Source: Takakia lepidozioides (taxonomy: Eukaryota; Plantae; Bryophyta). Taken from it: 64,000 nt of DNA. The position numbers and the translations under genes were made by a program. This document shows, piece by piece, positions 1 to 25,660 of the stretch. Under the pieces are notes generated by a model, which had not been told where the DNA came from, did no database searches, and saw only the letters and a list, made by a program, of their open reading frames with translations. The stretch is taken from contig CM060731.1 in the NCBI GenBank assembly GCA_030704615.1, positions 70,370,001 to 70,434,000 of the forward strand, given 5' to 3'. Within the stretch, counting starts at the first letter, position 1; every line of letters starts with the position of its first letter.

Positions 1-341
1 AACCTGGGAACGGTTCTTAATGGCGGGAACGTTTTGGTGTTAAAAAAAAAAAAAAAAAAAAACTTTGATATAATTTAAATGATTTAGAGCCTGGTTGGTC
101 ATAACTTTGTCAAATGGACTCCGTTTGACTCAGTTTTTGGGTGGATAGCTGCAGAAAGGGGAAATCTACATATCTACATCTGATTTTTGTTTTGGGGACT
201 CTGCTAAAAATCTGTGGAATTTTTAGAGTGTGAGTGTGCTATAAAAGATCCACAATTCTGTGTCCAGAATCTGTTGTGGTCTACATGAGACATAAATCTG
301 TGGATGTACTCCTTGCATGGCTGGGGGAAATGAGGACGTAA

Positions 342-1070
342 TTGAAGGGAGGGCAGGTCTCTTCTCTTAGCCTGTGCACACAAGGGGACAGGATTTATGT
401 TTCCCAAGGAACTCAGACTGATTTGAGTGGAGAACAGTTGGACGAGTTGATTGCATACTGGGAGTCAGGCATTAGCAATAGACAACAGACTGCTGTAGTT
501 GGCATTGAGGGCCTCAATATCGCCTTGGACAGTCAGAACTCTGTTGGAGCCAGCAGTTCTGCAGCTGTAGGTGAAATACCAAAGTGGGTGAAAGCTAGGC
601 TTGGAACACAGCCAAAGACAGCCCCGGGGACCAAGGTGTTCAGCCACAAGGCCGTGGTGTACTGGAGCAGAGGAGTAGGAGCTGCACAAGTTTGTGCAAT
701 TAGACAGTGTTGCAGTCGGACACGCTCTGCACAAGGCAACCACGAGCGGGGGTTCATTAGCGAGGACAAGTTTGTTCTGTTTGAAGGCGATGCAGTCATT
801 CGCAATGAAGACACCCGCAACCGTCTCAAAGCTTTCGAGTTGAGAGACTATCAGACCCTACCTTTGTTTTCTTTAGTGTTCAGTGAGCGGGAGATAGCAG
901 AGTGTTGCTTTGTCTCTACCTGGCAGAAAGAGGAGGAGGGTTGGTTAGAGCGAGCTACTGTAGCTTGGGACAAGGTTAGTGGCAGGTTTCTGGACATAGA
1001 TATACCTCCTACACCTTACCATCAAGCAGAGCGAGGCACTTTGAGAGAAGTCTGGAAGTTGATAGCATAG
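342..1070 (+). CDS. Uncharacterised ~240-aa ORF upstream of gag, probably part of the retrotransposon
   Basis: Long open frame on the same strand and in the same frame as gag, with globular-looking composition. It starts at TTG; an ATG at ~317 is out of frame, possibly by a 1-bp indel. No recognised domain. Confidence 0.4.
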   Translation: MKGGQVSSLSLCTQGDRIYVSQGTQTDLSGEQLDELIAYWESGISNRQQTAVVGIEGLNIALDSQNSVGASSSAAVGEIPKWVKARLGTQPKTAPGTKVFSHKAVVYWSRGVGAAQVCAIRQCCSRTRSAQGNHERGFISEDKFVLFEGDAVIRNEDTRNRLKAFELRDYQTLPLFSLVFSEREIAECCFVSTWQKEEEGWLERATVAWDKVSGRFLDIDIPPTPYHQAERGTLREVWKLIA

Positions 1071-1592
1071 ATCAGGATTAGATCTTGCTTGGGCGGGCTT
1101 CTATTCTTCCCCTCCATCTCTGTACTATTTTCATTACCTTGTACTTGTAGTAGTTGCCAAAGCCTCTCTTGGTGGAGGCCAGTCAGTCCGGGGTTTTGGG
1201 CTGGGATATTCTGCAGGATCAGCGTTGCTGCTGGATTTTGGTGTGGGGGTGTTGATGCTTTGATTTCTTGTGTTTGGATCCCCCCCAACACCTGCATGCT
1301 TGACTGTGCGCCATGTTGGTTTTGTGTGGGCGCTTGCTTTCATAGGGATTAGGCCGGATTTGATCACCGGTCAATCCTAGAGTATGCTGTCGGTGGTGAG
1401 GCTGGAGTGATGACCAGCAAGACCACCAGTGTTTCTTCTATGGTGAGGCTGGGTTGATGACCAGCCAACCATAGGAGTTCTTGCGGTGGATGCAGGTGCA
1501 GGTGCCCTGAGCCATTGGGATATGACCCTTAAACTGCAACAGGTGCCCACCCGTGTCACTATTAGATTAGTACTAGAGCCTTATAGTGTCAC

Positions 1593-4290
1593 GTGGAGGA
1601 GGTGCACATTGTGAGTGTCATTACGGAGTTACCCAAGGGTTTTGAGGGGAGTACGGCTACAGGCAGTAACAGTGAGAGTGGGTTCACAAGACGAGGTATT
1701 CGGTTCAGACCACCTTCACCGCCACCCTCAATTACTGTAGAGTCAGACACAGACTCGGAGGCTTCATCAACAGGTGTGCACTTTCATTCGCCATTGTTGT
1801 GGGACGACATGGAGGAGATGTATGGAGCTACCAAGGGGCCTCGTAGGTACTCTGGAGCTGTGGGCACAATCGAGTTGGATGACTTTATCCAGGAGTTCGA
1901 CAGCTGGTGTGATTTGCAGCAGATGCGCAATCCACAGCTATTCACCCCATTCATGGCGTGGAAGGGACTGTTCCAGCATTTGGAAGGCCCGCCTATGGAC
2001 GATTACCACGAGTTCAGGCGAGGACATGAAGCAGAGATTGAGGAGTGGAGGATGTATTGGTCACCTGACTACGTCTCCATTACTCGAGGCACGACGCGAC
2101 CAGTAGCTGCATCAGTACCAATAGCTCCCACTGCCAGCACTAGTAGTGGAGCAGGTAGTGCTGGTACTTCTGCAGGTGGTACCAGTTCAAAATGTGCTAC
2201 TACTCCTCCTGCCACAACTACAACACATGTGCCTAGATTCAACCCGGTGGTGGAGTTCTTCCAGGAGTTGCGGAGGAATTACCAAGGTGTACGGACAGAG
2301 AAGCTGCGAAGTTTGCAAGACTTCCAGCGCAAACCCAGTGAGAGCCTGTGAGAGGCGTACACTCGTATGAGGCGCTTGATAAGTGTGACCCAAGGGGTTA
2401 CTGAAGCTCAGGCAATCCAGTTTTGGTATGGAATTCTGGACAAGGAGCTCAAGAGAAGGGTGCGAGATGCAACCCTGTTACAAGCAGCCCAACCCACATT
2501 AGCAGATGTGTTTCTGCTGGCTGAGCGGATTGAGCTCAACATGGTGGAGGAGCGAGTTGTTACAATTGGATTTGGCAAGGACATGCCTGTACGGGGCACA
2601 GCTGTCAGCCCACAGGCACAAGGGACTGCCCAACAGCGTGGTCAGGGGGGCAAGGTTGCCCAGCCCAAGTTCCATGGAGCTTACAGGGGACCTCAGGTGC
2701 AGAGGCCCGTGGCATCTTTTGCAGGCCAACAGCAACCAGGGGTGATATGTTGGACATGTGGAGGACCCCATGTCAAAAGAGATTGCCCAGAGAATGGCAG
2801 AAGGCCGGCACAAGCACAGCCTGCACAGTTGCAGTGTGGGCATTGTGGCAAGTATGGGCATGTAGATGCCCAGTGTTATGACTTGCATCCTGAGTTGCGC
2901 CCAGGCCAGTTCCAAGGGAACAATGGTGGCCGGGGGCGAGGTGGACCAGCCCAAAGAGGACGAGGTGGTCGGGCACGAGGTGCAGGCCAAGGGCAAGCTC
3001 CACATGGCCAAGGACGCGGAGGTCAGGGTGTTGACCAAGGCATGGCCAATCGGCTTCAGCAGCTAGAGCAGAGGCTCGCTGCCATGGCTATAGCTCAGGC
3101 GGTACCGGCTCCCAGGCGGGATGGTCCACCTCCTGCTCCTGAGGGAGGAGATATGGGAGGCATGGGATTCATGTGCGGAGCAGCACTACCACTAGAGCAG
3201 GTGGAGTCTGCTGCAGCCGTGACTCGAGGAGCAGCACGAGTTCCTGAGCCACGAGGTGCAGAGGTGGAGTTGGATCCACAACGTGGGGAGGCAAGCCGTC
3301 AGGCGAGGCTGCCTCAGTCATTCACCTTGGCGGAGACAGTGTCAACGCCATCCATGGCACCTAGTTCTCGCCCGACTGTTACCGAGGCGGAGGTTACTAT
3401 GCCATTGGGGAGAGCTACACGTGCAGCACTGACACCTGCTACCAAGGCTAGTGCAGCCGGTGTGTTATTGGGGGCAGCCACCTCTGTGTGTCAAGCCCCA
3501 CTGTTCTCGGCAACCATGATTGCGACGCCGGGGGTGAGACCAGCTGCAGTGTTCAGACTAGCAGCAACTCTCTGTGAGAGTGGGGAGGTCACTTCATCTT
3601 CTGCGGAGTTAGTGGAAGGTATAGTGGCAGAGGGATCCTCGGATTTGAGGGTCAAGACTGCCACGGCTGCGCCATGGCAAGTTGCAGCTGCCAGGTTGAC
3701 GGAGCTGCCAGCTAGGCCAGCCATTGAGCGCGCCATGGTGACACCTGGAGTTGTCTTGTTGGACAACCAAGGAGACATTTTCACTTTGAGTGGACCGGTA
3801 GGCAAGAAGTACCGGCCACTGCGGGTCTTGTTGGACTCAGGAGCTCAGCCACTGATGTTGGGCAGAGCTGCTATTGCAGGTTTGGGCCTCATGGAGGCGG
3901 ATATGGAGCCTTGTCCTTTCCAGATACAGACATCTCTGGGAGGATCAGAGCAGGCTCGCGGCATGACACGGCATCAGTTGGCTATTAGACTGCAGCCGGA
4001 TCATCCTGTAGATGGCTCAGTGATGCGAGCCAAGGCCATTGTGACAGACGCGGTCTCTTACGATGTCCTCGTTGGTGGGGCAGTGTTATACCCCATAGGC
4101 TTCACCCTGGATTTCTGGGAGGAGTCAGCATCCTACAGGCCTGGATGGCAGTCAGGGGATGGTCGCCGTGCACAGCTCCCCGTGACATTCATTGGGGGTA
4201 TTGCAGCTGCCCAGCGGGGCAAGATGCCAACACTAGCCGCCTTCACAGCTGCAGTTAGTTGGCCTGGAGAGTTGCTGGAAGGCAAGCCCA
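1593..4290 (+). pseudogene. gag: Gag (capsid-like region, two zinc knuckles, RGG tract) plus aspartic protease
   Basis: ORFs 1593-2351 and 2367-4475 are in one frame, split by TGA at 2349-2351 (ESL*EAYTRMRRL). Knuckles CWTCGGPHVKRDC (~2748) and CGHCGKYGHVDAQC (~2835). Protease motif VLLDSGA (Asp codon ~3834) and later DVLVG. Confidence 0.88.
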
Positions 4291-5794
4291 TGCAGAGGAT
4301 GTGCCACCTCCAGCAGAGCAGGATGACATGCATGGTACGGCGGAGTTGTCTGCCATGGTTGCTCACACTCCGTTGTGGGGTACGAACAAGGATTTGCAGC
4401 AAGCTGCTGATGGACGGGTGCAACAAGCTTGGGTGGAAGCTTTTTTATCGTCAGGAGAGGAGGAGAGTGCGGTGATTGCACCAGGGCCACCTCAGTTGTC
4501 GCCATTGGACACCACACCTCTTGTGTGGCAGCGGCCGGATGAAGGCATTTGCCTTCTGGACTTGTTTGGCGGGATCAGCACCGGATTGGCTGCTGTGCTA
4601 CAGGCAGGTGTGCGGGTAAGGCGTTACCTGTATGTGGAGAGGGATGAGACTGCACGACGCGTCTCACTGCGCCATGTGGCTCAGTTGGTACAGCAGTACC
4701 CTGACTTGTTGCCGGTGTCTGCAGTTCGTGGATATCAGCAGGCCTTGCCAGCAGACATTGCGTTGCTGGGGGCGCAGGATTTGGAGCGGGTTGGCTCCAT
4801 TGATCTGGTAGTGGCAGGTTGGCCCTGCCAAGGGCATTCATCAGCCGGGCATGGCAATGGATTGCGAGACTCGAGGACGGGTCTGTTTTGGGAGATGGTG
4901 CGGATTTTGCGCCACTTGCAGCTTCATCAGGCTGTATCTCCGGCATACATCTTGGAGAATGTGCCACTGATGGGTGATTCTCGGGCCAGGGTGATGGCCA
5001 GTGTGCATCAAGTCCGGTCGTGGCTTGGGTCAGCAGTGTTGCTGGATGCAGCTGCAGTGGGGTCACGGGCTCATCGTCCACGACTATGGTGGACTAACTT
5101 GATGCCACCCGCACTGCTCAAGCGTGCATTTGATGGGGTGCAGCGGCCAGCACACCTCACCGTGGATGGCATTTTGGACACAGGAAGGCAGTCTCAACGT
5201 GTGAGACACGATGACCGTTCGCCTTTGGCAGTGGTCAACAGGGTGGGTCAACCACGAGCAGCATTACCTACACTGCTCAGCTTCCCAGGATCCCATGCTT
5301 TTCGGGATGGTGGACCTGGCCTCCTGTGGGATGCTCAGTTGCAGCAGTTAGTGGAGCCTAATGCCGACGAGCGAGAGCGGGCTATGGGGTTTTCCACTGG
5401 GACCACGGCGGTGCCTTCTCTTTCTGAGGCATCACGTCGTCAGGTGTTGGGGCAAGCAATGGATCTCAATTGCTTGACCTGGATTGTCAGCTTGGCTATG
5501 GCTGAGCAACGTAGAGTGCGGAGTGCACTTCCCTTGACGGTCTCTCTGCCTACCGAGACGGTACAGGCAGCGAGTGGGGGCGAGCCGGTGAGGACCACGG
5601 GGTGTAGACATCCATGGCACATGTGGGAGGTGCTCGAGGTTCAGAGGGAGTTGGCAGCCAAGGCAGCTGTGATGGATGAGGTTGGGGATTCTTCTCGGGA
5701 TGAGGAGGTTCTCAATGATGAGATGATGGGGCAGGATGAGGCCTTGTCATTGACTGAGCAGGAAGGGAGTACTGCTCAAGAGGTTGCAGCATAG
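4259..5794 (+). CDS. C5 cytosine DNA methyltransferase domain (DNMT3-like) inside pol; core ~4547-5500
   Basis: Motifs in canonical order: I LDLFGGIS; II YVERD; III DIALL; IV DLVVAGWPCQGHS (catalytic Cys ~4826); V RTGLFWE; VI YILENV (~4955); VII DAAAV; VIII AHRPRLWWTN; IX ERERAMGF; X RRQVLGQAM. Confidence 0.93.
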   Translation: MAWRVAGRQAHAEDVPPPAEQDDMHGTAELSAMVAHTPLWGTNKDLQQAADGRVQQAWVEAFLSSGEEESAVIAPGPPQLSPLDTTPLVWQRPDEGICLLDLFGGISTGLAAVLQAGVRVRRYLYVERDETARRVSLRHVAQLVQQYPDLLPVSAVRGYQQALPADIALLGAQDLERVGSIDLVVAGWPCQGHSSAGHGNGLRDSRTGLFWEMVRILRHLQLHQAVSPAYILENVPLMGDSRARVMASVHQVRSWLGSAVLLDAAAVGSRAHRPRLWWTNLMPPALLKRAFDGVQRPAHLTVDGILDTGRQSQRVRHDDRSPLAVVNRVGQPRAALPTLLSFPGSHAFRDGGPGLLWDAQLQQLVEPNADERERAMGFSTGTTAVPSLSEASRRQVLGQAMDLNCLTWIVSLAMAEQRRVRSALPLTVSLPTETVQAASGGEPVRTTGCRHPWHMWEVLEVQRELAAKAAVMDEVGDSSRDEEVLNDEMMGQDEALSLTEQEGSTAQEVAA

Positions 5795-5863
5795 CAACCA
5801 CGGGACGCGTCCTCTACCTCTAAGCCCACTGGACTTAAGGTTGCAGTTACGGAGGACAATTAG

Positions 5864-8751
5864 GAGCCTGACATTGGACCCATTGTCACTGGAGGAGAGA
5901 GACGACGTATACGGCGGTTCCTGAGGGCTTACAGGAATTGCTTTGCCTTCAGTTTGAAGGACTTGGGAGCGCTGAAGGGTCAAGAGATCCGTATTGAGTT
6001 GGCCACTGACACGCCAATCTTTCGGAGACCCTATAGATACAGTGACATGGAGAGGTCTTTGATTCAGATGAGGACTCAAGATCTCTGGGAGGCAGTTTGG
6101 TGGAGCTCTCTGGTGGAGAGTATGCTTCAGCCACAGTGATGCCAGCTAAGAAGGATGTCTATGGCAATTGGACGGAGAGACGTATGTGCGGTGATTACCG
6201 GCCTGTAAATCGTCAGACCAAGTCCGATAGGTATGCCATGCCGACACCAGAGGAGATCTTTGATGCCATTGGGCATTCCAAGGTCTTTAGCACGTTGGAT
6301 TTACGATCCGGATATCACCAGTTGCCGATCAAGGAGGCGGATAAGCAAAAGACGGCATTCTGGGGGATCAATGAGCACGGGAAGGATTGCCTATACCAGT
6401 GGCGGTTCTTACCATTTGGGCTTAAAAACGCTCCCGCTGAGTTTCAAAGAGTCATGGACAGGATTCTAGCAGGGGTGGAGTTTGCTCGGTGCTACATAGA
6501 TGACATCATCATCTTTAGTGCTACGGTGGAGGAGCATGAGAGACACCTTCAGGGGGTATTTGAGCGCTTGAGGACGCACGGATTGAAGTTACATCCGGGC
6601 AAGTGTAAGTTTTTCCACAACCAGATTGAGTATCTGGGTCACATGATATATCCTGGAGGATTGGGGGTACAACAGACTAAGGTAGAGTCCATTGCACAGG
6701 TTCCACGCCCCACGGATGTGAGCCGAGTTCGAGCTTTCATGGGGTTAGCAAACTATTACAGACGGTTTGTTAAGGGATTTAGTGCCATTGCAAAGGCTCT
6801 AACCAAGCTGACCAAGGTGGACCAGGAGTGGCAGTGGGAAGATGAGCAAGAACAAGCTTTTCAAGAGCTCAAGGCGAGGTTGACCTCGGCGCCCATCTTG
6901 AGACGACCTATCAGGGGGCGTCCTTTTCAGCTGCATACAGATTGGAGCATGCTGGGGCTTGGAGCGGTGCTCACACAGGTGGATGATGAGGGAAGAGAGT
7001 TCGTAGTGGCTTATGCTAGCCGCTCGAACAATGCTGCAGAGTCTAAGTATAGCTCATATGAGGGAGAATGCTTAGCTGCAGTGTGGGCCGTGGCACACTT
7101 CAGGTGCTATCTATACGGCAATCTCTTCACCCTTGTCACGGATCACCAACCACTCAAGTGGTTGATGGAGTCAGACAAGCTTACGGGGAAGCTTGCACGG
7201 TGGGCACTCATCCTTCAAGAGTATGACTTTCAGGTGGTGCATCGACCGGGTTTGGTCAATCGCAATGCAGATGGGTTGAGTCGCAATCCATGCACGAGCC
7301 AGCAGGATGACACTGGAGCTCGGTGGCATGGTGAGACGGACGAGGAGATGGTGCCCGGATGGCATGCATCTGCATTTCTGTGTATCTTGGCAGCGGAAGG
7401 CCAGGTTGGACCTGCAACAGGGATGACTGTGGATCAAGTGTCTGAGGACCCTGAGGCCAGCAATGAGCAAGGTGGCACCAAAGATATACATGAGGATTCA
7501 GCTGTGTTGGACTATCTTCGCACTGAAGACACGGCAGCCACTGTGACTGCCAAGGAGAGGGATCGGATCCTACAACAAGCCAAGAGGTTCAAGTGGGAGG
7601 GGACACACCTGCTCCGAGTGTGGGAGGATGGTCAAGTGAGGATTGTGCCTCACCCAACACAGCGGGCACGGTTAGTGCGGCATGCCCACGAGGAGTTGGG
7701 GCATTTTGGGGTGCGACGCACCCATAGCCTACTGCAAGGGCAGTATTGGTGGCGTGGTATGCACACAAAGGTGCAACAATTTGTGGCTAGGTGCATGGTA
7801 TGTGACAGGGTGCGTGCTTCATTCAACGCCCCTACTCCACAATTGCACCCTCTTCCGATCATGGGATTGGGCTACGGGTGGAGTCTTGACTTCGCAGGGC
7901 CGTTGCCACTGACCATGCGCCACAACAAGTACGTGTTGGTGATGGTGGAGCACTTCTCCAAGTGGATTGAATTGGTTCCATTGCCTGATAAGGCTAGTGA
8001 GGGAGCTGCGTATGCATTCTTGGATTGTGTGCTTAGCCGATTCGGTGCTCCAGCTGAGGTACTCACGGACCAAGGGAGAGAGTTCTTGGGGGAGTTTCAG
8101 GCTTTGTGTGACAAGGCCTTGATAGACCACCGCACCACTTCTCGGGATCATCCTGAGGCCGATGGCTTGGCAGAGAGAGTTGTTCAGACAGTAAAGAGGG
8201 GTTTGCGCAAGTATGGCTTGCAGAAGGGACACCTAGGAGATTGGGACCTTCAGTTACCCTGGTTAGCCATGGGCTACAGGTTCAGCAAGCAAACATCACT
8301 TGCCTCCTTCTCACCATACTTTCTTCTCTTTGGCCGAGAGCCGGATTTGCCTACATCCATTCGCAGAGAAGCTGCTACAGTTCTTAACCTTGACGATCCG
8401 GACGTGTGGGCACGTGTATGTGAGCAGCGTGCAGAGTTGTTCAAGAGAGTCATGCCCATGGCTTTCGAGAACCTTGCCATTGCACAACACCGTGATACGT
8501 TGAGGTATGCTACCATACGTGGTGGGGGCTATCGTCCTGGGGTTCGGAGATTCAACCCTGGTGACTATGTCTATCTGCAGCAGACTACTCCTACGACCCT
8601 GGATGTGACTGCAGGACGTGTTATTTTGAGGGTTCGAGAGGTCTTGCCCTCAGGCGTCTTGGTCTTGGAGGGTCGGGATGGCATAACTTGGAAGGACCAT
8701 GTGCGTAATTGTGCGCCATGTCACCTTCCGAATGTCGATGGCAGGATTTGA
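5864..8751 (+). CDS. pol: Reverse transcriptase - RNase H - integrase (pol); N-terminus frameshifted near 6093
   Basis: RT: RMCGDYRPVN, LDLRSGYHQ, PFGLKNAP, YIDD (~6493). RNase H: LHTDWS, ECLA, TDHQPL, NADGLSR. Integrase: H-x4-H...C-x2-C (HEELGH...CMVC) and D-D-E (SLDF, TDQG, AER). Confidence 0.96.
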
Positions 8752-8929
8752 CCCAAACCTGGCAGTGGTATCTGCAGGTTTGAGGTGCATGTTGTATGGG
8801 TCTGCTAAAGGGGCAGCCACCATGCTGGTGTGTGATCGATGCTCTAGAGGTTGGCATATGGGGTGCTTGACTCCACCTCTTGAGATGGTTCCAGATGGGG
8901 ATTGGTTATGTCCACAATGCAGTGGATAG
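8750..8929 (+). CDS. PHD finger at the integrase C-terminus, separated by a 1-bp insertion
   Basis: C-x2-(Y for C)...MLVCDRCSRGWHMGCLTPPLEMVPDGDWLCPQC matches the C4HC3 PHD pattern. Removing one T from 'atttgacc' (~8746-8753) gives ...VDGRI-DPNLAVV in frame with integrase. Confidence 0.88.
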   Translation, partial: DPNLAVVSAGLRCMLYGSAKGAATMLVCDRCSRGWHMGCLTPPLEMVPDGDWLCPQCSG

Positions 8930-9173
8930 TGGGAGTGAAAACAACCATGGGAGGCTAACAAGCAACGCAAGGCCCAGATACAGGAGACCTTGAATACACG
9001 AAGTCCTGGCTCAAGTTCACAGATTGCAAGATGGCGACTAACGATGGGGCTACTCTTGCACCCGGCCTCTTGGTCTATAGAGTTTGAGTACGATAGGGAC
9101 AGTGATACAGGACTTAGTACGGCTATGGCTATTACGTCTTGTAGCTATCTGGAGGTAGAGGGACCTATCCACC

Positions 9174-9188
9174 AGCTAGGGGGGCGAT
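9174..9188 (+). promoter_or_regulatory. Polypurine tract (plus-strand primer)
   Basis: agctaggggggcgat lies immediately before the TG that starts the LTR. Confidence 0.65.
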
Positions 9189-9717
9189 TGTGGTAGACTA
9201 CTTTATTGTGCATATATGTGTGGTGTGGTTTGGACAGCGATGTAGTTGTGTAGCGATATGTATGCGCACGACAGCTGTCAAGTTAAATAAGCACAGTGTG
9301 AAAACAGCTAGCATAAAACTAGTTATTTGTATTTAACACTTGGATTTAGGTCAAGTGTTAAATCAGGTGTCAAGTTTAGTTTGACACCTGGTCCGTCTTA
9401 TCTTCACGAGAGCGGCAGTCGCGCAGCTCATCTCTCTCGAGTTGAGCCTGCGCGACCGAGCTCCTGCATGTGTTTAGGTTTTAGTGTGCTTATGTAGGGA
9501 TACAGGTTGTTGTGGGGTGGAGTCCCCATAGCTTGGGGTGCCCCTGGCTCGACTTCAGTTTCAATGAGTGATAGCGATGGATTTTATATTTCTTGTGTTG
9601 GGAGTGTATGTCCTTTCAAGCTTCATTATCATTGTGGTAAACTACTTTATTGTGCATATATGTGTGGTGTGGTTTGGACAGCGATGTAGTTGTGTAGCGA
9701 TATGTATGCGCACGACA
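9189..9717 (+). repeat. 3' LTR (529 bp) with an 85-bp direct repeat at both ends
   Basis: Starts TGTGG after the PPT and ends CGACA at the junction with the satellite. 9189-9273 and 9633-9717 differ at one base. Confidence 0.75.
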
Positions 9718-10301: not shown

Positions 10302-12165
10302 TTTCCGAAGGGACAAGGCAGTTTTTGGTGGGCCCCCTCCAAAACAGGACATACCCTCACAGATGAGGGTATATCTCTCACGAAACTAACATCCACCGGA
10401 TGAACTGTATGAATTGGAGGCTACCTACTTCATCCAACTTCTGTGAAAATTTCAGCTCATTTCACCATGTATTTTGGAGGATTATAAGAAATTTGCAAGC
10501 CCTAAATTTGGGGTACACTCCAAATTTGCAGTGGAAAAATGGTTTGACCAGGAAAGTGGATCGACAAATTTTTTTTTTCCTCACAAGACCCCATCCAGAT
10601 TCCCATTATGTGGCACCTAAAGCATGTTGTGGCAAAATTCCAAAGTAGAATTCCCAAATTTTCACAAGGTTGCTTTGTAAGGGAAAACAGGGGGGGTCAA
10701 AACACACCATGAAGCTCAAATGACATGTAATTCAGGCTGCGGGGGTCCAAATTTCCTTGGAATCACAATTTCTGCGGTGAAAGTCTCCCTTGAATGATGA
10801 AGTACCACCTCCAAAAAAAAATTTAGAATTTCAGCAAAAATTGAAGCACTGATTTATCTTTCTGTGAATTTCTACTTCAATCCCAACTCAGGCCAAATAT
10901 TGCCTGAGCTGGTAGACATTTCCGGCTACAAAAAATGGGCTACGTCATCGATTTGCGACCCTAAAATGTCAGGGGACCCCAAATGCGAAATCCTAAGAAG
11001 GCCTGGGGACGCCCTCTGTTTCAGCGTTTCATCCGACAAGCATCTAAAAACTAACTACCAACTACCAAATACCTGCTATACCCCCAGTGCAACGAAACAA
11101 GCTCCCCGCGAGCTCCTGCGTTACCCCCAATGTAGCGATACAAGGTCCCCGCGAGCACCTGCTTTACCCCCAATGCAGCGATACAAGCTCCCCAGGAATA
11201 TCATGATCCCAGAACTGGGGGGGGAGTTGAACCCCCCGATCTGCCCATTGTGCAGACAATCCCGCGCCCCCCCCAAAGCAGCAAGCATCACCCCCAAAAG
11301 CAGAACCACTACCATGACTGCTGCACCGCTGCCCCGCCCCGCCCCCCCCTTCCCCAAAAGTGTGAAACCACCCAAACACAACGCTCCTACGCCAATACAC
11401 CCAAACCCCCATCACCTCCACAGCCCCTCAACCGGCAGCAGTAGATCGACATGACCCCCACAGCCTGTGAACCATCAGCAACACACCCCCACATGACCAG
11501 CACTGCCCATGAACCAACAGCAGCACTGAATTCGTGGCTGTGCAGCCCTTCTCGCACCTCGTAAATGCAGGTGAAGCAGCAGATGTAAACGCAGCGGCCA
11601 GCTCTAAAGACAAACAAGAGCTCCGCAACGCAAAACGGAACAGCGGCCCACACACACCCACATCGCGAAGAGCCCAATAAGCGCACAAAGAAAACAATCA
11701 AGCGCATGCAGGGCAAAATAGGATCGACACAGGAAGGAAGAAGAAGCGTAAAAAGCCGATCTGCACACAACAAGTTGCGAGCCCTCCACATGCACAAACG
11801 AGAGATAACAAAGGATGCGAAGTGCCCGTCCCTGCCACCTCCCGCCATCCTTCGCACGTGCCAGGGGGAGATGTGGCTGTCCGCACAGGCGGACATGCAG
11901 CCCCGGTGGCACCGGTCGCCGCCGAACACATGAACCCCATCCCATCCAACCGGCCACGTGGCAGGTCAACCCTGCTGGAGGGCCCCAAATCACTGATTTT
12001 TGGGTACTACTTTCCAAAAAATCCTGCCGGCTGTCCCTTAGGATTTTTGGGGTGCCATCAAACATTTTTCATTCAGGGCTCGAATTCATCCGAATTCATC
12101 TCGATGATTTTCATCCAATCGAAATTTTCCGGCGACCTAATTCAGGTCGCCTTGTCCATAAGGGG
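10302..12165. mobile_element. Non-autonomous ~1.86-kb insertion interrupting the tandem repeat
   Basis: The satellite unit breaks at ggtactta| and resumes at |ttatagacccaagc (TTA or TA duplication). Subterminal inverted GGACAAGGC/GCCTTGTCC (10311-10319, 12149-12157). Hairpin ggcgacct-aattc-aggtcgcc at 12131-12151. Confidence 0.65.
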
Positions 12166-12500
12166 TTATAGACCCAAGCGAATGCAAAGACCTTGCCTTA
12201 AGGGATTGAGCCCACAACCTCCAGAACTCTAAAATGAACTATTTCAAATCCAAAAGGCCTTATGGTCCCAGCTACTTTTAACCTCTTAGCCTCAACGTAC
12301 TTGTAAACCCAAGCAAATGCAAAGACCTTGCCTTAAGGGATTGAACCCACAACCTCCTGAACTATAAAATGAACTACCTATCAAATCCAAATTTCAAATC
12401 CAAAAGGCCTTATGGTCCAAGCTACTTTTAGCCTTTTAACCTTAAGGTACTTGTAGACCCAAGCAAATGCGAAGGCCTTGCCTGAAGGCATGGCCCCACA
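12166..12500. repeat. ~135-bp tandem repeat, right block
   Basis: Same unit as 9718-10301, ~2.5 copies. Confidence 0.9.
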
Positions 12501-12693
12501 AATAATGAAATTAGAGGTGCAGGTAAGCATATAGTTAGGAGTGACATGATTGAATGGTCGAGTTGTGTAGAGCACTTAGCGTCCCACTAACAATTGCCAA
12601 AATTTGCTTCTTGCACTGTGTGGTGATGTTCTGTATATTGCAGGAGACAGTGGAGTCGGTGTGGAGCTTGAAGGCCACGACAGAGAGCAGGTC

Positions 12694-14248
12694 ATGGCAG
12701 ATGTAGCAGTGAGAGCGAGGGCACTGTCATTGTATCGCATGCTGATGCGGTCCGTGCGCACCTGGCCAGGCCCCTCACACGAGAAGACGTACATTTATGT
12801 ATATCTTGTCCTCACATTCGTGTTTCTTTGCAATGTAGATGCATGATTTGTGTGGCCGTTTCATGTTCGCTTTGTGTCTTTGCTTTCCTCCTCTCCAATC
12901 CAATGGGTTCAACCTGGATTCTCTACAAATGACGAATCGACAGTGGTAACCCTAAACGCTGTTTCTTCTTTTCTCCCTTGTAACCCGCTTGGTTCTGGGC
13001 CGAGTTGAAATCCTTTGTAAGGTTAGAACCCCAAGACGAGCGGTAGGAGAGCTGGTATCGTGTGGTGACTATGGCTGGCTTCAAAGGTATAATGGCAATG
13101 GCAATATTCACCGGGAGTGGTCAGCGAGAGGAATTAGGTTGGACTTGCGAGCAGATTAGGGTTATGTACTGACTGGTTTCATTAATCATTTGATGCCTTC
13201 CTGAGGTGGGAGGTGGTGACATCTGTTTTCTGGGAATGCAGGATGAGGCATACACACTTTTTAGAAGGGATCAGCGGGTCACAGATCCTGCAGAGATAAC
13301 TAAAAAGGTGCGCTCTTTCGGTCACTTAGAGGGCCGTCTCTGCTATCCATTTACCAGATTTTCTCTCATCAAAGTCTGTCATGGAAACCACGTGCCCGCA
13401 TCATGCACTCCTGGAACGTCCACCCTTAACCGTGCATTCAACTTTGGCAATTCAGATATCGACTTCCCGTTTATATTCACAAGGATGATCTGTTACAAGG
13501 CGTTTGAATATGTATGAATGAAAAAACAACTACAATCAGTATTGTACTCACATCTGAGATACTTTCAGTAGACAACTTCCTTGTTTGACAGGATCTGTGC
13601 TGCATTGAATACTGGTTTAAGCTCTCTCAGTTATTGAGGAGGAAATCTAGCGGCCTCTTGTTCGTTTGTGAACATGGTTTGTTCTGTTGCCTGTAAAGTT
13701 GGCAAGGTCTTGGGTCATTCATAATGTAGCTTATTAGATTTTTTTCAAGCACAATACGGCAAGGGTTATTCACTAATAATATTGGCTTGCTTAGGATTTT
13801 TCTAGCCTATGGACTGACATACCCAAACTTTTCACTAAGCTTGCCTGTGTTTGTGAATGCAGCTAGTGGAAGGTGAGACGAGATATCAAATTGCCTGGCA
13901 CTACAAAATTCCTTATCCGCGCCTTCATAACTTGGCCACTGGCTCTGTCACTGAAAATCCTAAAAGGGTTTCGGGGCCTGGTTACCAGGTGTGTAGTTAT
14001 TCCTTCTTTTTTGCTGATAAACTGGGTGTGTTTAGCTGGGGTGAAGGTCACCATCTCTACCTTATGATGGACACTGGTTCCTTGATTTCAGCTCTTAAGT
14101 TAGAAGCTATGTGCTGGGTGGTTCATTGCTTTCGCTAATAGCAGGGTGCATGGGTTTTCAGATTCCTTCCCAAGCGATGGGCTCTTTGGATGATGAAGAT
14201 GATGTACCAGGATTAAATGGATCAAAGAGGATTTTTCAGGGTTTGTGA
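12694..14248 (+). CDS. LYR-motif protein, LYRM1-like (exons ~12694-12798, 13242-13307, 13863-13988, probably 14162-14248)
   Basis: Spliced product MADVAVRARALSLYRMLMRSVRTW...EKTYIY/DEAYTLFRR.../LVEGETRYQIAWHYKIPYPR. The LYR motif and HYKIPYPR match LYRM1. GT-AG boundaries keep the frame. The last exon is a best guess. Confidence 0.82.
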
Positions 14249-18049: not shown

Positions 18050-21000
18050 GCGAAACGTTTGGTCTGGTATCAACAGTATACCAATGGAATTTTTCAAAGC
18101 CTTATGGCTCATGGTGGGGGAACATTTTCTGAGTATGGCTAACGACATTCTTGGTAAAGGAATTATGCCTTCCCCTATGTCTCAAGGTTTGATCACTCTC
18201 ATCTTCAAAAACTGAGATAGGCAAAAAATCTCTAACTACCGTTCCATCACGTTGTTAAACATCACCTATAAAATAATAGCTAAGGCGCTTGCTTTAAGAC
18301 TTCAGCCACTGCTCCCTAGAATCATCAAGAAAGATCATACTTGCTTTATCAAGGACAGGATGATTTTAGACAATATCTTACTGGCTCACGAAGCTTTGCA
18401 TTTGGCTAACATAAATCTCCAACCCCTAGCATTCCTCATGCTAGATTTTGAGAAAGCTTTTGACTCAATTGATTGGGATTTTCTTCTGAGGGTCCTGGCA
18501 AAAGCTGGTTTTCAAGGACCCTTCCTTCATTGGATCAAAATCCTCATTTCTTCTGCCTCAAGCAGGGTTATGGTCAATGGGGTAATCTCTGACTATTTCC
18601 CCATATCTAGGTCAGTTCGCCAAGGTTGCCCTTGGCTCCCTTTCTCTTCCTCATTGTTGTGGACAGTCTCGGGCATCTATGGGATTATAAACCTGATATA
18701 GCCGGACCTCCCATCCATGGTCAAACTTTCCATGTATGCTGATGACACAGCTTTGCTCCTGCATTGCTACATGGGCAATATAGAAAAAGCCATCCTTGCT
18801 TTGAACCAATTCTGCTTGGCCTCTGGTCTAATGGTTAACTGGAACAAATCTGTGGGAATGCTTTCTTTAATCCAAGAAAATGCTGCATTGCGGCACTGCC
18901 AGCCTTGGGGAGGAAATTTGGTCTGAGATGGCATCCTGAGGGGTCCTCCCGTGCTCTTTTGGGTTACCAAATGGGACACTACCTCATGGACAAACAACGG
19001 TTCTGAGGGATTCTGGAAATGCTGAAGAAGAAACTTATTATTGGAGCTCCTCTATGCTGTCTCTTTCAGGAAGAGCCCTAGTGCTCAATCAAATTCTCAT
19101 GGCCTCAATATGGTTCCCGGCTGTTGTTTGGGCACCTGGCTCTGCTCTTATAAAAAGGATAAAAACATTGATGCGTTCGAAACTTCCTATGGGAAACTAC
19201 TTCAGCCAGCCCTCAGCGTCGTGCCTTGGTTTCTTGGAAGCAAGTCTGCCAACCAAAATGCCAGGGAGGGTTGGTTATCATTGACCCCACTGCGTAGATT
19301 GCTACTTTGCTAGCTAAATGGGTGCCAAGGGCTCCCAGGCACATTCAAAGCCCCTGGAGTAGACTGGTTCGACCTCACTTGGTGGATGCCACGCCGCGAT
19401 CTTCCCAAAAGTGGGCTCCCTCCCTCAGATGGATAGTGCAGGGTAAAGGTACCACGACTCCCACAGGGTCCTAGCCCTAGCTCTCTATAATTTGGAAGGC
19501 ATGGAACTTGCTCAGGCCCTCTTTCACACATTAAAGAATGCTTGTCAATTACGCAGAGGCCATCCGACAGCCCTTTTTCGAAAAATAAAACCTTGGATTT
19601 CGAGTGTTGTTGCCTTTAGTTCGGAGATGGGATGGCTGGGAAGAGGAATGATTCATTCATCTGGACAACATCTGGGAACATGGAGATTTTGTCCCCACAC
19701 CCCTGATTACTTCTGTTCTAGGCACTCGCCGTTCTGTAATTTCTTGGCCATGCATTGTTTCCCAGATACCTCCTTATACTCGAGCTCCTTTGCAAGATAA
19801 AAACAAGGAATGGGACGTGCCAGCCTGGTTTGGCAATAGGAATGAAGATCATAATTTGGCTCTCCTACCTCTGTCCTAGTCAAATAACGGTGGCAGTGCC
19901 TCGGGCCTTGGTTTCAAGGTTCTCAATGCAGGAGGGCTGGCTCTCCTTGGCGAAAGAACCTTAGCGCCAAAGCAGGATTGTTCCCCATAAGGGTCATTGA
20001 CTGTATCTCAGGGAAGCCTAATCCTTTGCCACCACTAGGACAGGCCCCTCATTGGGCCCAACATTCACATTTCAACTGGTTTATGAGATTGCCACTTGTA
20101 GGTCTGCAATTTGATCCAGGGGAATGGTCCTGGATGGACAGGGCTCGCTCCCCATTCTTTGTCTACTCTGTTAAACTTGGTTATTCGCTTCTCTCACCAC
20201 CCCATTCCTTCTCCAGTAAATAGATAAGCAAATGGGGCTTACTTTTGCAAGGTGATGTTAATTGGTCCCAAATCTGGAAAGAGATTTGGCGCAAAGATCA
20301 GAATTCTAAGCTATCTGCATTCCTATGGAAGATTACTCATAAGATCCTCCCATTGAATGTATTCATGAAAGTTGATAATTTGGACTGCGCTATGTGTTTA
20401 GGAAGCCAGGAGTCCTTGGAACAGTGTCCGGTGACATGCCCAAGGGCAAAAACAGTCTGGTCCATGGTCACTAATTTCTACTCCAATTGGGAGACTCTCC
20501 CTGTTCTCAACCCCCTTCTCTCTTACTGCTTAACTTTAGAAATGGCAAACCTATGATTAGGTGCCCAGTGTGGGGGTGTCTGAGAGCTCATAAGCTTTCG
20601 GCAATTTGGAAATTAAGGTGTGCTTGGATTTTCCAGGGTAAAACCCCCAGTCTGAGATCTGTGTTGTTTCAGAGTGAGAATACTCCGGCCAAAGCCGGCG
20701 TAACTAAGAGCCACTTCGCCTCACGGCTACTGCCCCCTCTCGGGGGTGGGCCCTATCTTCAGGTTTATATTGATCTCATGACTGAGGAGATGAAGGCCTG
20801 CATCTCATTGTGTGCAGCTTTTCCCCGAGCTTCAGTCAGGCCTAATTTCCAGGAGTTTGATCTCGCATGGGGCAAGAATGGCCTCCTTGGCTCCCGTATT
20901 TCCGACTCTTTAGTGCAATGGAAAGACTCCATCCCCCCTTCATGGGAAATCCCCGGCTGAAGGCAAAGATGTAGACTTCAACTAGCGCCCTAAACGAGCA
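18050..21000 (+). mobile_element. Degenerate 5'-truncated L1-like LINE ORF2 (RT + zf-RVT)
   Basis: Fragments G.NSIPMEFFK, NYRSITLLNITYKIIAKALA.RL, LDFEKAFDSIDW, SVRQGCP, YADDT, FLWKITHKILP...CAMC...ES...CP, with many stops and frameshifts. Confidence 0.9.
20673..20756 (-). mobile_element. ~85-bp retroposed copy of the RLE-LINE 3' tail, inserted in the L1
   Basis: Matches 15550-15620 and 32743-32829, with a flanking ttcag duplication. Removing it restores LRSVLFQ-VYIDLMTEE. Confidence 0.75.
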
Positions 21001-22165: not shown

Positions 22166-24122
22166 ATTACCGCGGAAACACGGCAAATACGGCAAACCCT
22201 AACCCTAACCCTTAGCGAACTGCCATGTTTGTGAAGGAAAACAGGCTGGGAATTAAGCTGACGTCATTACCGCGGAAACACGGCAAATACGACAAACCGG
22301 GGAAACACTGCAAATTGTAACCCCAAACCCTAACCGTAACCCTTAGCGAACTGCCATGTTCGTGGAGGGAAACAGGGCTGGAATTAAGCGAGCGTTAGGC
22401 ACATGAGAATTCAAATAATAATAATAAAAATAATAAAAGTTTTTTGTTTTTTTTTTTTATTTTTTTGGTTTTTTTTTCGCCCCTCCCCCTGGGCATTTGG
22501 GTAGATGTCGTCGACGATCATCGTGAATTCATGATCATGAAGAAATTGAGTGCGTTGACGCACTCAGTTCTGCGTGGGGGGGGGGGGGGGGGGGGAGAGG
22601 GAGGGAAAAAAAAAAAAAAAAAAAAAAAAAAACACTTGTTTTCTTTTTTGGGTTCACCCCCCCGGGAGAACTGAGTGCGTCAACGCACTCAATTTCTTCA
22701 TGATCATGATTTCAGGATGATCATCGACGACAGTGTTGTGCGGGTCCGGATTTTCACCCCTGGTACCTGGCAGGTTTTTTTTGGGGGGGGAACTCCCCCC
22801 CCCCCGGTGAGAACCTAAGTGCGTCAACACACTCAATTTTTTCACGATCATGATTTCAGGATGCTCATCGACGACAGTGTTGTGCGGGTCCGGATTTTCA
22901 CCCCTGGTACCTGACAGGTTTTTTTTGGGGGGGGAACTCCCCCCCCCCCGGTGAGAACCTAAGTGCGTCAACACACTCAATTTTTTCACGATCATGATTT
23001 CAGGATGATCATTGACGACATCAACGACAGTGTTGTGCAGGTCCGGATTTTCACCCCGGGTACCCGACGGGTTAGGGTCAGCGTTTTTTTTTATTGGCGA
23101 TTTTTCGCCATTTGGCTGTTTGAAAATCCCCTTGGCGAATGAAACAAAGGGAAAAAGAGGTCCAAATAAGGCAGTTTTCGCCAAAAAATGGGGGTCTCAA
23201 AAAGGTCCTCGTCTGTGGATCCACGGGGCAGCAGCACAGATGTAGCCATGGCGGGCCCCATGCAGGATGATCTGACGGGCCAGATGAGGAGTGGGTTTAG
23301 GATTGTGGGGCCTCATCTGTTTCCCAAGGAGATGCTCGTTGCCAGTTTTGCGAGAACTATATACCTCATTTGTACCAATTAGCCTTGGTTTTCACATAGA
23401 AAGAGTTTCATTCGTCCTATGGCTTTCAACTATTTCTATACTTCACCTTCTATTGCTCATCAACATTCATTTGATTCGCAAAATATGGCAAGGGTGGAAA
23501 TACATGTAGCCTACCAATTCGAGGAAAATTACCTAGAATGGGCCACTACCCTACACCCAATATATATAGCCACTCCTATTCCTTTTCAAAATCCCTAAAA
23601 AAAACCCTGGTTAGGGTCCGGGTTACCTATCCTGATCCGGACCCGTGCCATCACCAAAAACTCGGACCCTGACCCGGGTTCATTTCAAAACCGGACCCGG
23701 ACCCGCCAGCTAGGTCCAGAACCCGTTAAACCCACTACTCGCGGGCCAGAGTTGGTATAGCCATCTTTCCTAGTTCACTAGTTGACTTTCTAGAGAGTTA
23801 TACTATTGTTGGTGGGTTGAAAAGCAACTCACTAGTGGGTGTGGCTGCTCCAGGAGTATACTTAAAAACAATGATGGGGCTTGGTGAGAGTGGGGCTAGG
23901 TGGGATCGTAGCTTGGGGCTAGTGGAAGTGGGACCAACTGCGTGAAGTGCTTGGGGTGGGAGTGCTTGGGGTTGACGAAGTAGGGATGGGGGAATTGGGT
24001 CGATCGTCGTGCTTGTAAAGGGGACTCAATATGTCGTGTTTGCCGTATATTGCCGTGTTTGCCGTGTTTGGAAGTTTTGCCGTGTTCACCTCTTCTTCCA
24101 AAATATACACTTCCACGGTAAT
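22166..24122. mobile_element. Putative TIR element with (A)CACGGCAAA subterminal repeats and CCCTAA motifs
   Basis: attaccgcggaa at 22166 (duplicated at ~22266) is inverted by ttccacggtaat at 24111-24122. acacggcaaa and tttgccgtgt repeats occur at opposite ends. Confidence 0.5.
22505..23065. repeat. Inverted plus tandem ~143-bp repeats with internal palindromes
   Basis: Units start at ~22666, 22809 and 22953. An inverted copy lies at ~22505-22571. Palindromes tgagtgcgt-ca-acgcactca and tcatgatcatga. Confidence 0.85.
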
Positions 24123-25660
24123 ATGACCCCCTCTAAACCTTGTCCTCGGTTATAGGACTTGCTTCTCCCTCCTCTAAACCCTGGGCCTAGGCTCACGCTT
24201 AGAGGGCAAAGCATGAGCCGAGCTCCTGGGCTCACGCGGCTAGGCTCACGCCGTAGCTACGCTCCCGCCGAAGCATACCCATGGAGAGCAAAAGTGCTCC
24301 CTCATATATCTAGACTCGGCGCCGCCCAAAAGACAGGCGGCCGAAGTTCCTTCTAGAATGGTGGACTACCTACTCGCCTCCACATAAGATATAGTTGGGT
24401 TCATTGTTCAGCCTTGACTCTTCCTACACTCAACATATCTGGTCCCACTCATTGATCCATAGCTATATTAATTAATATAGCTATGGTTCATGTTTTGGTC
24501 TTTTTTTGGGGCCATGCATGTGCAGCGCCCAAAGTAGGTACTAACTTAGAAAGTAAGTAGTAAGACGTAGGGGATGAGCGCGCTCTCTCCTCTACATACC
24601 TTCTCAAGGAGGCGGCCGGGACCCCATCAAGCGGTGGGGGATCTTCTAGAAGGTTGCCCAACACATGTCACCCCTAGAAACCACTACTTGACACTTGTTT
24701 ACCCCAATTTGGCGCCTGAATTAAACTATCCTCCACTTAATAGCCGTCGCCTTTCTACTTTCTTTTCTTTGGACCCCCCCTTACACAAGGGTTATTCCGT
24801 CAAATCCTTGTGTAGCTTACTATATATCCCCTTTTAAGCTCCTCGACCATCCTCTAATGGGCAGGGCCCACGCCAACTTGGGGGCTTATCCATAGCCCCC
24901 CTAAGGAAAGAGAAGACCGATTGATAACCCTGCCAAACCGGGCGGTTTTCTATATGTGCTCATGTTCCCCTCAATACCACAAGCGAGTATGGCTCTCAAT
25001 CAAATGGGTCCCACCGCTCATCAGTGAGTCCGGTTGCTGGTTATAACCCAGAGTATCTTCTGCCCCCCCAACAGTGGTATGCACAGTAGGAAAAACAGTG
25101 ACAGCTCAGCTAAGGAAGTTGGTGCCCTAACACCTCTACATTTTTTTTTGGGCAAAAATAGAGGTTGTGGTTCCTCGTCACGTGTTTTTTTGTTTTTGGT
25201 ATCATTATATCATTGTATTTTGTTTTTGGTATCACCTCCACATTTAAAATACAAAAATGCAAAAAAAATGCGAGAAACCTTTTCCAAGCGAGCTTAGTTG
25301 CAATGGTAAGGTCAAAGAAGATTCTGGTAAGAAGGGCAGTAGCAGTAGAGTTCAATCCTTCCAATGACCAATTGCACCTAGCCTTCCATATAATGCCAGA
25401 TGGTAGCTTCTCGGAGGGCTTCAAAGACAGGGCATTTGCAGGCCACCGACTTTGATCCCTTATCCCACATTTAAAAATGCAAGAAAAATTCTGAGGATTA
25501 GATTCCACACTAGTAGTAGTCACTAGTCACTAGTCATTCCGGAGTTTGAATGTTTTGGGGTACAAGTATGATAATGCAATTTGTCTTTCCCACCTGCACA
25601 CTCTCCCTCTCTCTCTCCCTCCCACACACTCTCGCACAGTGTCACTCTTTGCGAGCAGAG

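Follow-up and report, generated by a model that had tools for sequence, protein, structure and literature searches.

We examined a 64,000-nucleotide stretch of DNA (hereafter, the window) and found in it a decayed copy of a Gypsy retrotransposon, in which a DNMT3-type cytosine methyltransferase closes the Gag-protease frame at a stop codon conserved across the element family. We give even chances to the following reading: this dead Gypsy copy carries a Gag-protease-DNMT3 frame that ends at a leaky UAG, the methyltransferase (DNMT) is made at the level of the capsid protein, and the enzyme methylates the element's own cDNA. Related elements are known from an alga; the present one differs in its land-plant host, for which we found no description in the literature searched, and in the conserved stop between the DNMT and the reverse transcriptase (RT).

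Structure of the element

The Gypsy domains in the window form a decayed copy of a family that is high-copy in the host. We identified the following features.

345..1070, + strand: putative ORF0 of about 240 aa, spanned by host-family contigs in runs X2, X5 and X12
1809..3700, + strand: Gag, its two zinc knuckles starting at 2748 and 2835, from homologues and motifs
3740..4200, + strand: aspartic protease (PR), LDSGA at 3831, weak Pfam match (E 0.037)
4538..5518, + strand: DNMT3-like C5 cytosine methyltransferase catalytic domain, motifs I-X, from Pfam, PDB profile, Foldseek and motifs
5519..5791, + strand: acidic tail, weakly conserved, closing the Gag-PR-DNMT frame, from frame reading and related junctions
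5792..5800, + strand: conserved stop with CARYYA context (TAG CAA CCA), likely readthrough site, from a variant scan and related junctions
5803..5913, + strand: stem predicted downstream of the stop, with arms near 5803-5826 and 5887-5913, possible readthrough stimulator (MFE z -2.5, duplex matrix)
5861..5863, + strand: second stop, in the window copy only
5864..7290, + strand: RT (YIDD at 6493) and RNase H (RH), Pfam RVT_1 E 1.7e-32 and RT_RNaseH E 5.8e-36
7480..8751, + strand: integrase (IN), zinc-binding domain and DDE core, from Pfam Integrase_H2C2 and rve and from motifs
8780..8929, + strand: C-terminal PHD finger, PF00628 E 1.2e-10
9178..9187, + strand: purine-rich, PPT-like tract adjoining the 5' side of the first repeat B, from sequence; L008 has a similar tract ahead of B
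9187..9273, + strand: terminal repeat B, first copy, 87 nt, ending GACA, 99% identical to 9631-9717
9276..9630, + strand: repeat A, 3' copy, beginning TGTC after a 2-nt spacer; the B-nn-A junction also occurs in L008, L049, L050 and L060
9631..9717, + strand: terminal repeat B, second copy, the 3' end of the element, from a repeat search and related loci

The element shows the Ty3/Gypsy order PR-RT-RH-IN with a DDE integrase. Membership in DIRS was rejected, since an rve integrase is present and no tyrosine recombinase match was found in the frames scanned. No chromodomain, the mark of chromoviruses, was found at the integrase end; a PHD finger stands there, with CHD4, PHF12, ATXR5, KDM5 and PHF21A as its top PDB matches. 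The protease is 60-61% identical to those of the relatives P0324 and P0438. Decay of the window copy is evident from a gag stop at 2349-2351, across which P0123 and P0124 read from a shared start methionine, and from frame breaks near 4285 in the protease/DNMT interval (a one-base indel relative to other copies), near 6094 in RT and near 8747 ahead of the PHD finger. ORF0 gave no Pfam match and only Atlas matches below 0.9, and tblastn did not find it in any of 80 related loci; Rfam returned no match in window positions 1-24000. CpG in the element (o/e 0.51) was no more depleted than in a neighbouring LINE (0.33) or in host exons (0.51-0.60), and CHG depletion was likewise uninformative.

The initial annotation called the element an LTR retrotransposon, but no normal pair of identical LTRs, one at each end, was found; instead, the repeats are split, in the layout A-coding-B-A-B seen in L050. 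A 5' copy of repeat A was detected neither in window positions 1-1900, where the best local score was 27, nor in the rest of the window; other copies, such as L039, L040 and L061, carry a single B at the 3' end. Related loci have TG...CA ends and target-site duplications, the window copy being without its 5' end. Among the eight loci with both ends, a 4-bp target duplication was exact in five, matched at 3/4 bases in two and at 2/4 bases in one. Judging from the method as outlined in the consulted portion of PMC6317226, such split repeats would evade LTR-pair finders.

The methyltransferase domain

The stop-to-stop frame 4259-5794 (511 aa) matched PF00145 with an E-value of 5.2e-13 and a score of 49.5 bits, where the cut-off is 22. 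Its motifs lie in canonical order without introns: I (LFGGI, 4562), IV (GWPCQ, 4817), VI (LENVP, 4952), VIII (HRPRLWW, 5072), IX (ERERAMGF, 5369) and X (GQAMD, 5450). An intronless C5 methyltransferase with ordered motifs between the protease and RT of a Gypsy element, as first annotated, was thus recovered. In a PDB profile search, DNMT3A/B/C ranked first (E 4e-20 to 2e-15) and DRM next (3e-9 to 3e-7), followed by bacterial enzymes and DNMT2; none of the 57 matches with E ≤ 1 was a DNMT1 entry. The AlphaFold model (pLDDT 76.8) had DNMT3A as its top Foldseek match (E 3.6e-16), with 20-22% identity in the fold alignment. By sequence and predicted fold, the domain is DNMT3-type, closest to DNMT3 among solved methyltransferases and unpermuted in motif order. 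This agrees with the type originally proposed, and on these comparisons with solved structures an origin from DRM, MET1 or CMT was rejected. Host PpDNMT3b of moss and animal DNMT3A likewise have a non-permuted catalytic domain, whereas the element enzyme is intronless and lies within a retrotransposon polyprotein.

The catalytic motifs are widely kept: among 135 domains, PC was found in 119, EN[VIAT] in 129 and [HQ]RxR in 123. Motif I was matched in only 51 and motif X in 92 of these 135 trimmed domains; we take the low motif I count as an effect of trimming, LFxGI being seen in 19 of the 20 rows of alignment A1. Between families (L056, L057 and L060), where silent sites are saturated, DNMT dN/dS was 0.10-0.14, below one as purifying selection on the domain predicts. 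Within the Sphagnum-like family the ratio was 0.40-0.72, reflecting decay, and RT behaved similarly. Purifying selection therefore acts on the DNMT between families. Of the 81 sequences, comprising the window and 80 loci, only 7 contain the DNMT as one stop-free match of at least 315 codons. We consider it likely that the element's DNMT is catalytically active.

Host and distribution of the family

A quick DWF1 tree, built from 48 of the 120 listed DWF1 matches plus the window and without a hornwort or other named moss, placed the host among land plants on the moss side, in line with the land-plant origin assumed at the outset. The order Gag-PR-DNMT-RT-RH-IN-PHD was repeated across 80 metagenome loci, and Marchantia, Calypogeia, Riccia and Sphagnum harbour relatives. 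In Marchantia polymorpha, the gene models Mp4g09160, MpVg00370, MpVg00540, Mp5g06330 and Mp5g06860 (1278-1281 aa) form one 90%-identity cluster; copies of the element have thus been annotated as host genes. Trees of the DNMT and RT (FastTree, midpoint-rooted, with long branches and element enzymes only) gave largely the same groups.

Beyond these hosts, five pattern matches in viral contigs were all unrelated, and prokaryote genomes yielded a single locus, L081, which is probably a misbinned eukaryotic contig. No hornwort, lycophyte, fern or seed plant appeared among the named matches listed, nor any protein named K. nitens among the matches listed.

A conserved stop between the methyltransferase and RT

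As initially described, the frame continues past the DNMT, crosses two stops (5792-5794 and 5861-5863) and enters the RT N-terminus. The DNMT forms the C-terminal part of the Gag-PR-DNMT frame and shares its phase with RT across the stop. Its earlier placement inside pol thus needs revision: the domain does lie between protease and RT, but it ends the Gag-PR-DNMT frame, with an in-frame stop in 54 of the 56 loci (out of 81) that retain the end of the DNMT together with the start of RT, many of which are near-duplicates representing about four independent lineages. The two stops also differ in kind. Positions 5792-5800 showed no variants at ≥3% among 1359 host-family contigs from four runs, whereas the second stop was missing from 99.9% of the summed depth in run X2 and was missing in X7, X12 and X14. 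The first stop is a family feature and the second is copy-specific decay; we rejected both the view that the two are decay and the view that the two are programmed. Intact homologues end at the window's first stop (P0123, 1278 aa; P0124, 1248 aa; others, 1330-1450 aa), and relatives such as P0413 (2324 aa) have DNMT and RT in a single unbroken frame.

The window's stop (TAG CAA CCA) is a UAG followed by CARYYA, the type I readthrough signal; CAR-YYA is reported to drive readthrough in TMV (PMC2194720, PMC2754532). Among the 54 related junction stops, CAR follows in 50 and the exact CARYYA in 6. The hexamer varies by family (CAA CCA, CAG TTA or CAA TCA), giving Pro, Leu or Ser at the second codon with the motif kept, at a divergence where silent sites are saturated. 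The Sphagnum-like family, the largest with 42 of the 54 stops, has CAACCC, which is not an exact CARYYA.

A stem starting 11-13 nt past the stop was predicted in six of seven folds, with z < -2 in five of the seven; stems 3' of the stop are described as stimulators of viral readthrough (PMC3159437). The arms pair at -15 to -32 kcal/mol inside two family groups and at -5 to -17 across groups, with the arms picked after the folds had been seen and with 10 of 161 control windows equally stable for L056. RNAalifold found no common fold over 12 aligned sequences, and compensatory pairs numbered 0 of 33 in four close sequences, leaving consensus folding without covariation support. Because the stop is family-wide and a CARYYA context with a predicted stem recurs in divergent families, we judge it likely that RT-RH-IN-PHD is made by reading through the first stop.

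Comparison with known elements

The closest precedent is KnitGypsy-Dnmt3 of the alga Klebsormidium nitens (de Mendoza 2018; PMC5890265), which confirms the algal precedent named in the initial annotation. By its published description, it shares Gypsy domains, an intronless DNMT3, DIRS-like split repeats and purifying selection on the DNMT. Its DNMT is reported to lie in one ORF with RT and RNase H, whereas the bryophyte element has a conserved stop between them. The bryophyte element also differs in its land-plant host and in an integrase ending in a PHD finger, a term absent from the main text of PMC5890265. SymbioDIRS-Dnmt3, SymbioLINE-Dnmt and EpiLTRs (PMC5890265; bioRxiv 10.64898/2026.05.21.726589) are likewise retroelements bearing cytosine methyltransferases, the DIRS enzymes being DNMT3-type, but they belong to other hosts and classes (tyrosine recombinase, LINE, and DNMT4-like with DAM and chromodomain). 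The Chlamydomonas Gypsy-7a_cRei (bioRxiv 10.1101/2022.06.16.496473) has a PHD finger in its polyprotein, and a DNMT is not among the domains listed in the section consulted.

TMV (UAG-CAR-YYA), MuLV gag-pol and soybean SIRE1 share the in-frame UAG and CARYYA context, and the predicted stem resembles the cases excerpted from PMC3159437. Unlike in these systems, the stop of the bryophyte element follows both protease and methyltransferase, which would place both at the Gag level, and readthrough is predicted. In the literature searched, we found no description of land-plant elements of the KnitGypsy-Dnmt3 kind. According to one review, land plants such as tracheophytes lack transposon methylases (PMC6338049); bryophytes have them.

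Proposed mechanism and alternatives

In the proposed mechanism, a fraction of the ribosomes would pass the UAG and go on to translate RT, RNase H, integrase and PHD finger. The DNMT would accumulate at the level of the capsid protein, in excess over the copying enzymes, because the stop after it would be read through only in part. The element's protease would release the DNMT, which would be packaged into the particle and, there or in the integration complex, would methylate the element's own new cDNA, a target to which we assign slightly less than an even chance. New copies would then arrive pre-marked like host heterochromatin, and by analogy the PHD finger on the integrase may steer insertion to chromatin without H3K4 methylation. 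Methylation of cDNA was already put forward in PMC5890265.

Alternatively, readthrough may be real and the surplus DNMT may act in trans in the nucleus, on chromosomal copies in a self-limiting way or on host sites. Synthesis at the Gag level would yield far more enzyme than one cDNA requires, host DNMT3b is reported to perform CHH methylation on moss heterochromatin (PMC6453930), and slowed transposition was raised as a possibility in PMC5890265. However, the family abounds in the host, with 95,224 contigs in host run X2 (summed contig depth is not copy number, and run X12, which we guess may be RNA, was left out as expression evidence). Moreover, in relatives the DNMT lies within pol, either upstream of RT or separating RNase H from integrase, a placement that speaks for action in cis, and we regard action in trans as unlikely.

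The stop could also be a true terminator in an incidental CAR context; pol would then arise through splicing, by reinitiation or from an internal promoter. The Sphagnum-like family has an in-frame Met three codons past the stop, where reinitiation is possible, and L060 and L005 have a Met ahead of the RT box; in the window, L056 and L081, however, the first Met falls past RT's conserved RPY box (codon 85 versus 78; 117 versus 79). At the gag-pol stop of the fungal element Tca2, readthrough was undetectable in S. cerevisiae and a promoter was found at the junction, according to the portion of that work consulted. Gene models of Marchantia and Sphagnum fuse DNMT to RT with the junction skipped, but the skipped lengths are unequal, as predicted introns would be, and in most junctions the frame is open and in phase through the stop. 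That the stop is a true terminator appears quite unlikely.

The domain might instead be kept for a non-catalytic role, such as DNA or RNA binding in the particle or shielding of cDNA, or for RNA methylation. Consistent with this, the Klebsormidium enzyme produced no methylation in yeast, a result that its authors graded as inconclusive (PMC5890265), and our model is poor at residues 223-259, the likely target-recognition region. Against it, Symbiodinium DIRS DNMT3 domains methylated CG in that same assay (PMC5890265) and the catalytic motifs are kept in most of the 135 domains, so we hold such a role to be improbable. Finally, a one-off capture, nested insertion, contamination or misassembly, which the decayed window copy without a 5' repeat might suggest, is refuted by named proteins from liverworts and mosses and many related loci that share the order, by a 5009-nt contig from another organism covering 4237-9195 uninterrupted, and by intron-bearing moss-side genes in the same window.

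Implications

Why a transposon keeps an enzyme that normally silences transposons has been a question since 2018, and the earlier hosts were hard to handle. Marchantia polymorpha carries these elements and has methylation mutants, which makes the question testable there. If the conserved stop is leaky, it sets an expected enzyme-to-RT ratio, which would separate cis from trans models.

More tentatively, and at less than even odds, an old green-lineage Gypsy clade may have brought a single DNMT3 out of algae and into mosses and liverworts, with at least one change of its place in the polyprotein. In the lineage that includes the bryophyte elements, it would have come to lie before a programmed leaky stop, so that each particle would be loaded with the enzyme at capsid stoichiometry. 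Together with the PHD-tipped integrase, the enzyme would form a mobile writer-reader pair delivering pre-methylated copies, and might add a third de novo methylation source to bryophyte genomes.

The methyltransferase domain and its element

The C5 methyltransferase domain (DNMT) that the initial annotation had placed between the protease (PR) and reverse transcriptase (RT) of a Gypsy element was recovered by Pfam inside the frame at 4259-5794 (PF00145, E 5.2e-13). Its motifs I-X follow one another canonically from 4562 to 5464. A Gag with two zinc knuckles and the protease lie upstream, and RT, RNase H (RH), integrase (IN) and a PHD finger lie downstream. The proposed DNMT3-type character was borne out as a best-match result, which is not a phylogeny with host enzymes: a profile built from 20 relatives ranked DNMT3A/B/C first in PDB, followed by DRM and then bacterial enzymes, and the predicted fold matched DNMT3A best. 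The best PDB matches of the PHD, as likeness only, were the fingers of CHD4, PHF12, ATXR5, KDM5 and PHF21A. Several of these fingers, like the ADD domain of DNMT3A, read unmethylated H3K4.

Features of the window
345-1070: ORF upstream of gag, ~240 aa
9647-10379 and 12104-12531: tandem repeat of roughly 140 nt, two clusters
12690-14000: small host gene with introns, which we take to resemble an LYR-motif protein
18100-20900: decayed LINE-like RT (RVT_1, E 3.7e-18)
near 22195 and 22325: telomere-like CCCTAA runs
22420-23075: 144-nt tandem repeat, 76-nt inverted repeat and long homopolymer runs
25550-27133: kelch-repeat protein, host gene
28581-29435: SMP-30/gluconolactonase-like, host gene
36511-40047, minus: Delta24-sterol reductase, host gene
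42173-53513, minus: myosin-like exons, host gene (label from reading the translation)
59783-62408, minus: coiled-coil protein, host gene

The ORF upstream of gag occurs in this host's family; it was absent from 80 related loci and had no Pfam or Atlas assignment. From the kelch gene onward, the host genes span 25550-62408.

The kelch, sterol reductase and myosin-like genes are land-plant genes. As judged from these genes, the host is a moss-side land plant: the sterol reductase matches Sphagnum most closely (87%), and a quick tree groups it with Sphagnum and one further row (SH-aLRT 98) and keeps four liverwort-side rows separate. In one sequencing run, 95,224 contigs matched the element, and summed contig depth, which is no copy number, was 0.4-1.3 million across 351-9450 versus 833-4783 past 9800; together these point to a large family in the host. 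The window copy itself is dead, since it is broken at five places (2349-2351, near 4285, 5861-5863, near 6094 and near 8747). Homologues read straight through the first break, and other copies differ from the window copy at the last four.

Distribution and architectures

Two protein searches gave 224 and 65 proteins at E 1e-10 or better. Named sources among the matches listed were the bryophytes Marchantia polymorpha, M. paleacea, Riccia sorocarpa, Calypogeia fissa and three Sphagnum species, as well as Closterium, and no vascular plant names were among them. The chlorophyte Hariotina reticulata provided one cluster. One protein (P0021) carries a bacterial MAG label, and an element of the same family (L081, 1-9285) sits on one contig of an assembly made for a cyanobacterium; misbinned eukaryotic DNA probably explains both. 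A metagenome scan gave 330 related stretches, and among the 80 kept the order Gag-PR-DNMT-RT-RH-IN-PHD recurred, arguing for a family feature rather than a one-off capture.

A full profile search yielded 480 clusters (50% identity) at E 1e-30 or better. Among the best 150 of these, DNMT placements fall into three kinds, defining three element architectures: behind RT/RNase H or immediately ahead of integrase (84), ahead of RT within one frame (5), and terminating a protease-DNMT frame (10); the other 51 showed no further element domain. The RH-DNMT-IN and stop types formed separate supported groups in DNMT trees, and the RT tree was concordant except for P0180, a single-frame element placed in the stop group. 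In P0173, P0376, P0379 and the 84 representatives of the first kind, the chlorophyte Hariotina reticulata among the sources, the related DNMT follows RNase H and precedes integrase in Gypsy elements that bear a PHD finger, a placement not seen in the portions of the literature covered.

Selection on the domain was evaluated by Nei-Gojobori on tblastn-aligned codons of 10 chosen sequences. DNMT dN/dS was 0.136, 0.122 and 0.102 among three related loci (L056, L057, L060; dS 0.25-1.4), about 0.08 for the window against L006 (dS saturated), and 0.40-0.72 in decayed Sphagnum-like copies, similar to RT (0.59-1.13). Catalytic motifs were kept in most of 135 DNMT domains.

A conserved stop between DNMT and RT

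The DNMT frame crosses two stops to reach the RT N-terminus, and the two proved different in kind. The second (5861-5863) is copy-specific, missing from 99.9% of depth in the host's own family, whereas the first is conserved. Both DNMT end and RT start were present in 56 of 81 loci; an in-frame stop separated them at 54 junctions and a sense codon at 2, many loci being near-duplicates that represent about four independent lineages. The six bases 3' of the stop were CAACCC (42), TAACCC (4), CAACCA, CAGTTA and CAATCA (2 each), and CAACTC and CAACCT (1 each). Stop and CAR are maintained between lineages even though silent sites are saturated and the tail ahead of the stop varies in length and sequence. 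Outside the Sphagnum-like family, the second codon varies in amino acid and keeps YYA. Across the host's family, no variant reached 3% at any of the nine positions of TAG CAA CCA. Mp4g09160 (1278 aa) and further proteins of 1330-1450 aa are intact Gag-PR-DNMT frames ending at this position. The methyltransferase, between protease and RT as annotated, thus closes such a frame and is not simply a part of pol. On this comparative evidence, the first stop belongs to the element's design and is not decay. In four Marchantia/Sphagnum gene models (P0126, P0127, P0131, P0162), DNMT is joined to RT and the junction is skipped by varying lengths, probably because introns were predicted there to get round the stop.

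In TMV, CAR-YYA by itself is enough for readthrough, and the rate in MuLV is 5% (PMC2194720); a transient assay in plants measured 32% for the TMV context (PMC2754532). A stem was predicted to start 11-13 nt 3' of the stop in six of seven folds (z below -2 in five), which is the distance described for stems that stimulate readthrough (PMC3159437). Its predicted arms, selected after the folds had been inspected, pair within each of two family groups and differ between them; alignment-based folding gave no covariation in the region. The alternative that pol is expressed without readthrough draws on a Met three codons 3' of the stop in the Sphagnum-like family and on the fungal element Tca2, which shows that a gag-pol stop is not always read through; these two points, the lack of covariation and the late choice of arms all count against readthrough here.

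Element ends

The 3' end reads purine tract, B (87 nt), two bases, A (355 nt), B, and adjoins the first ~140-nt repeat cluster; no 5' copy of A was found within the window. The complete A-coding-B-A-B arrangement is present in L050, and the ends are TG...CA. The internal B-nn-A junction is common to L008, L049, L050 and L060, and several copies have a single B only. Eight loci having both ends carry a 4-bp duplication, exact in five. Because the two-base spacer resembles the overhang trimmed by integrase, the internal junction may serve as template for both ends. For the algal element KnitGypsy-Dnmt3, DIRS-like repeats were described (PMC5890265).

Proposed role and novelty

Most likely, the Gag-PR-DNMT product would be cleaved by the element's protease, and DNMT made at Gag level would methylate new cDNA in cis. 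The cDNA-methylation model was put forward in PMC5890265; the authors' own construct from Klebsormidium produced no methylation when expressed in yeast. DNMT could instead act in trans, or have a non-catalytic role.

The open literature in the portions covered (PMC5890265, PMC6338049, PMC12344493, 10.1101/363937, PMC9033089, PMC11982613, 10.1101/2022.06.16.496473, 10.1101/2021.11.30.470311, PMC6453930, PMC9477723, PMC6317226), subscription journals and Repbase aside, held no land-plant report of DNMT-bearing Gypsy elements or of the stop. The available part of bioRxiv 10.64898/2026.05.21.726589 has the wording "streptophytes (Gypsy-DNMT3)" without mention of bryophytes, moss or readthrough; its supplements and those of PMC12344493 may contain bryophyte sequences.

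The DNMT-bearing element is real, family-wide and under selection. New here are its occurrence in bryophytes, the layout with a conserved and probably leaky stop, the PHD finger, the target duplications and a second DNMT placement in elements including one from a chlorophyte.
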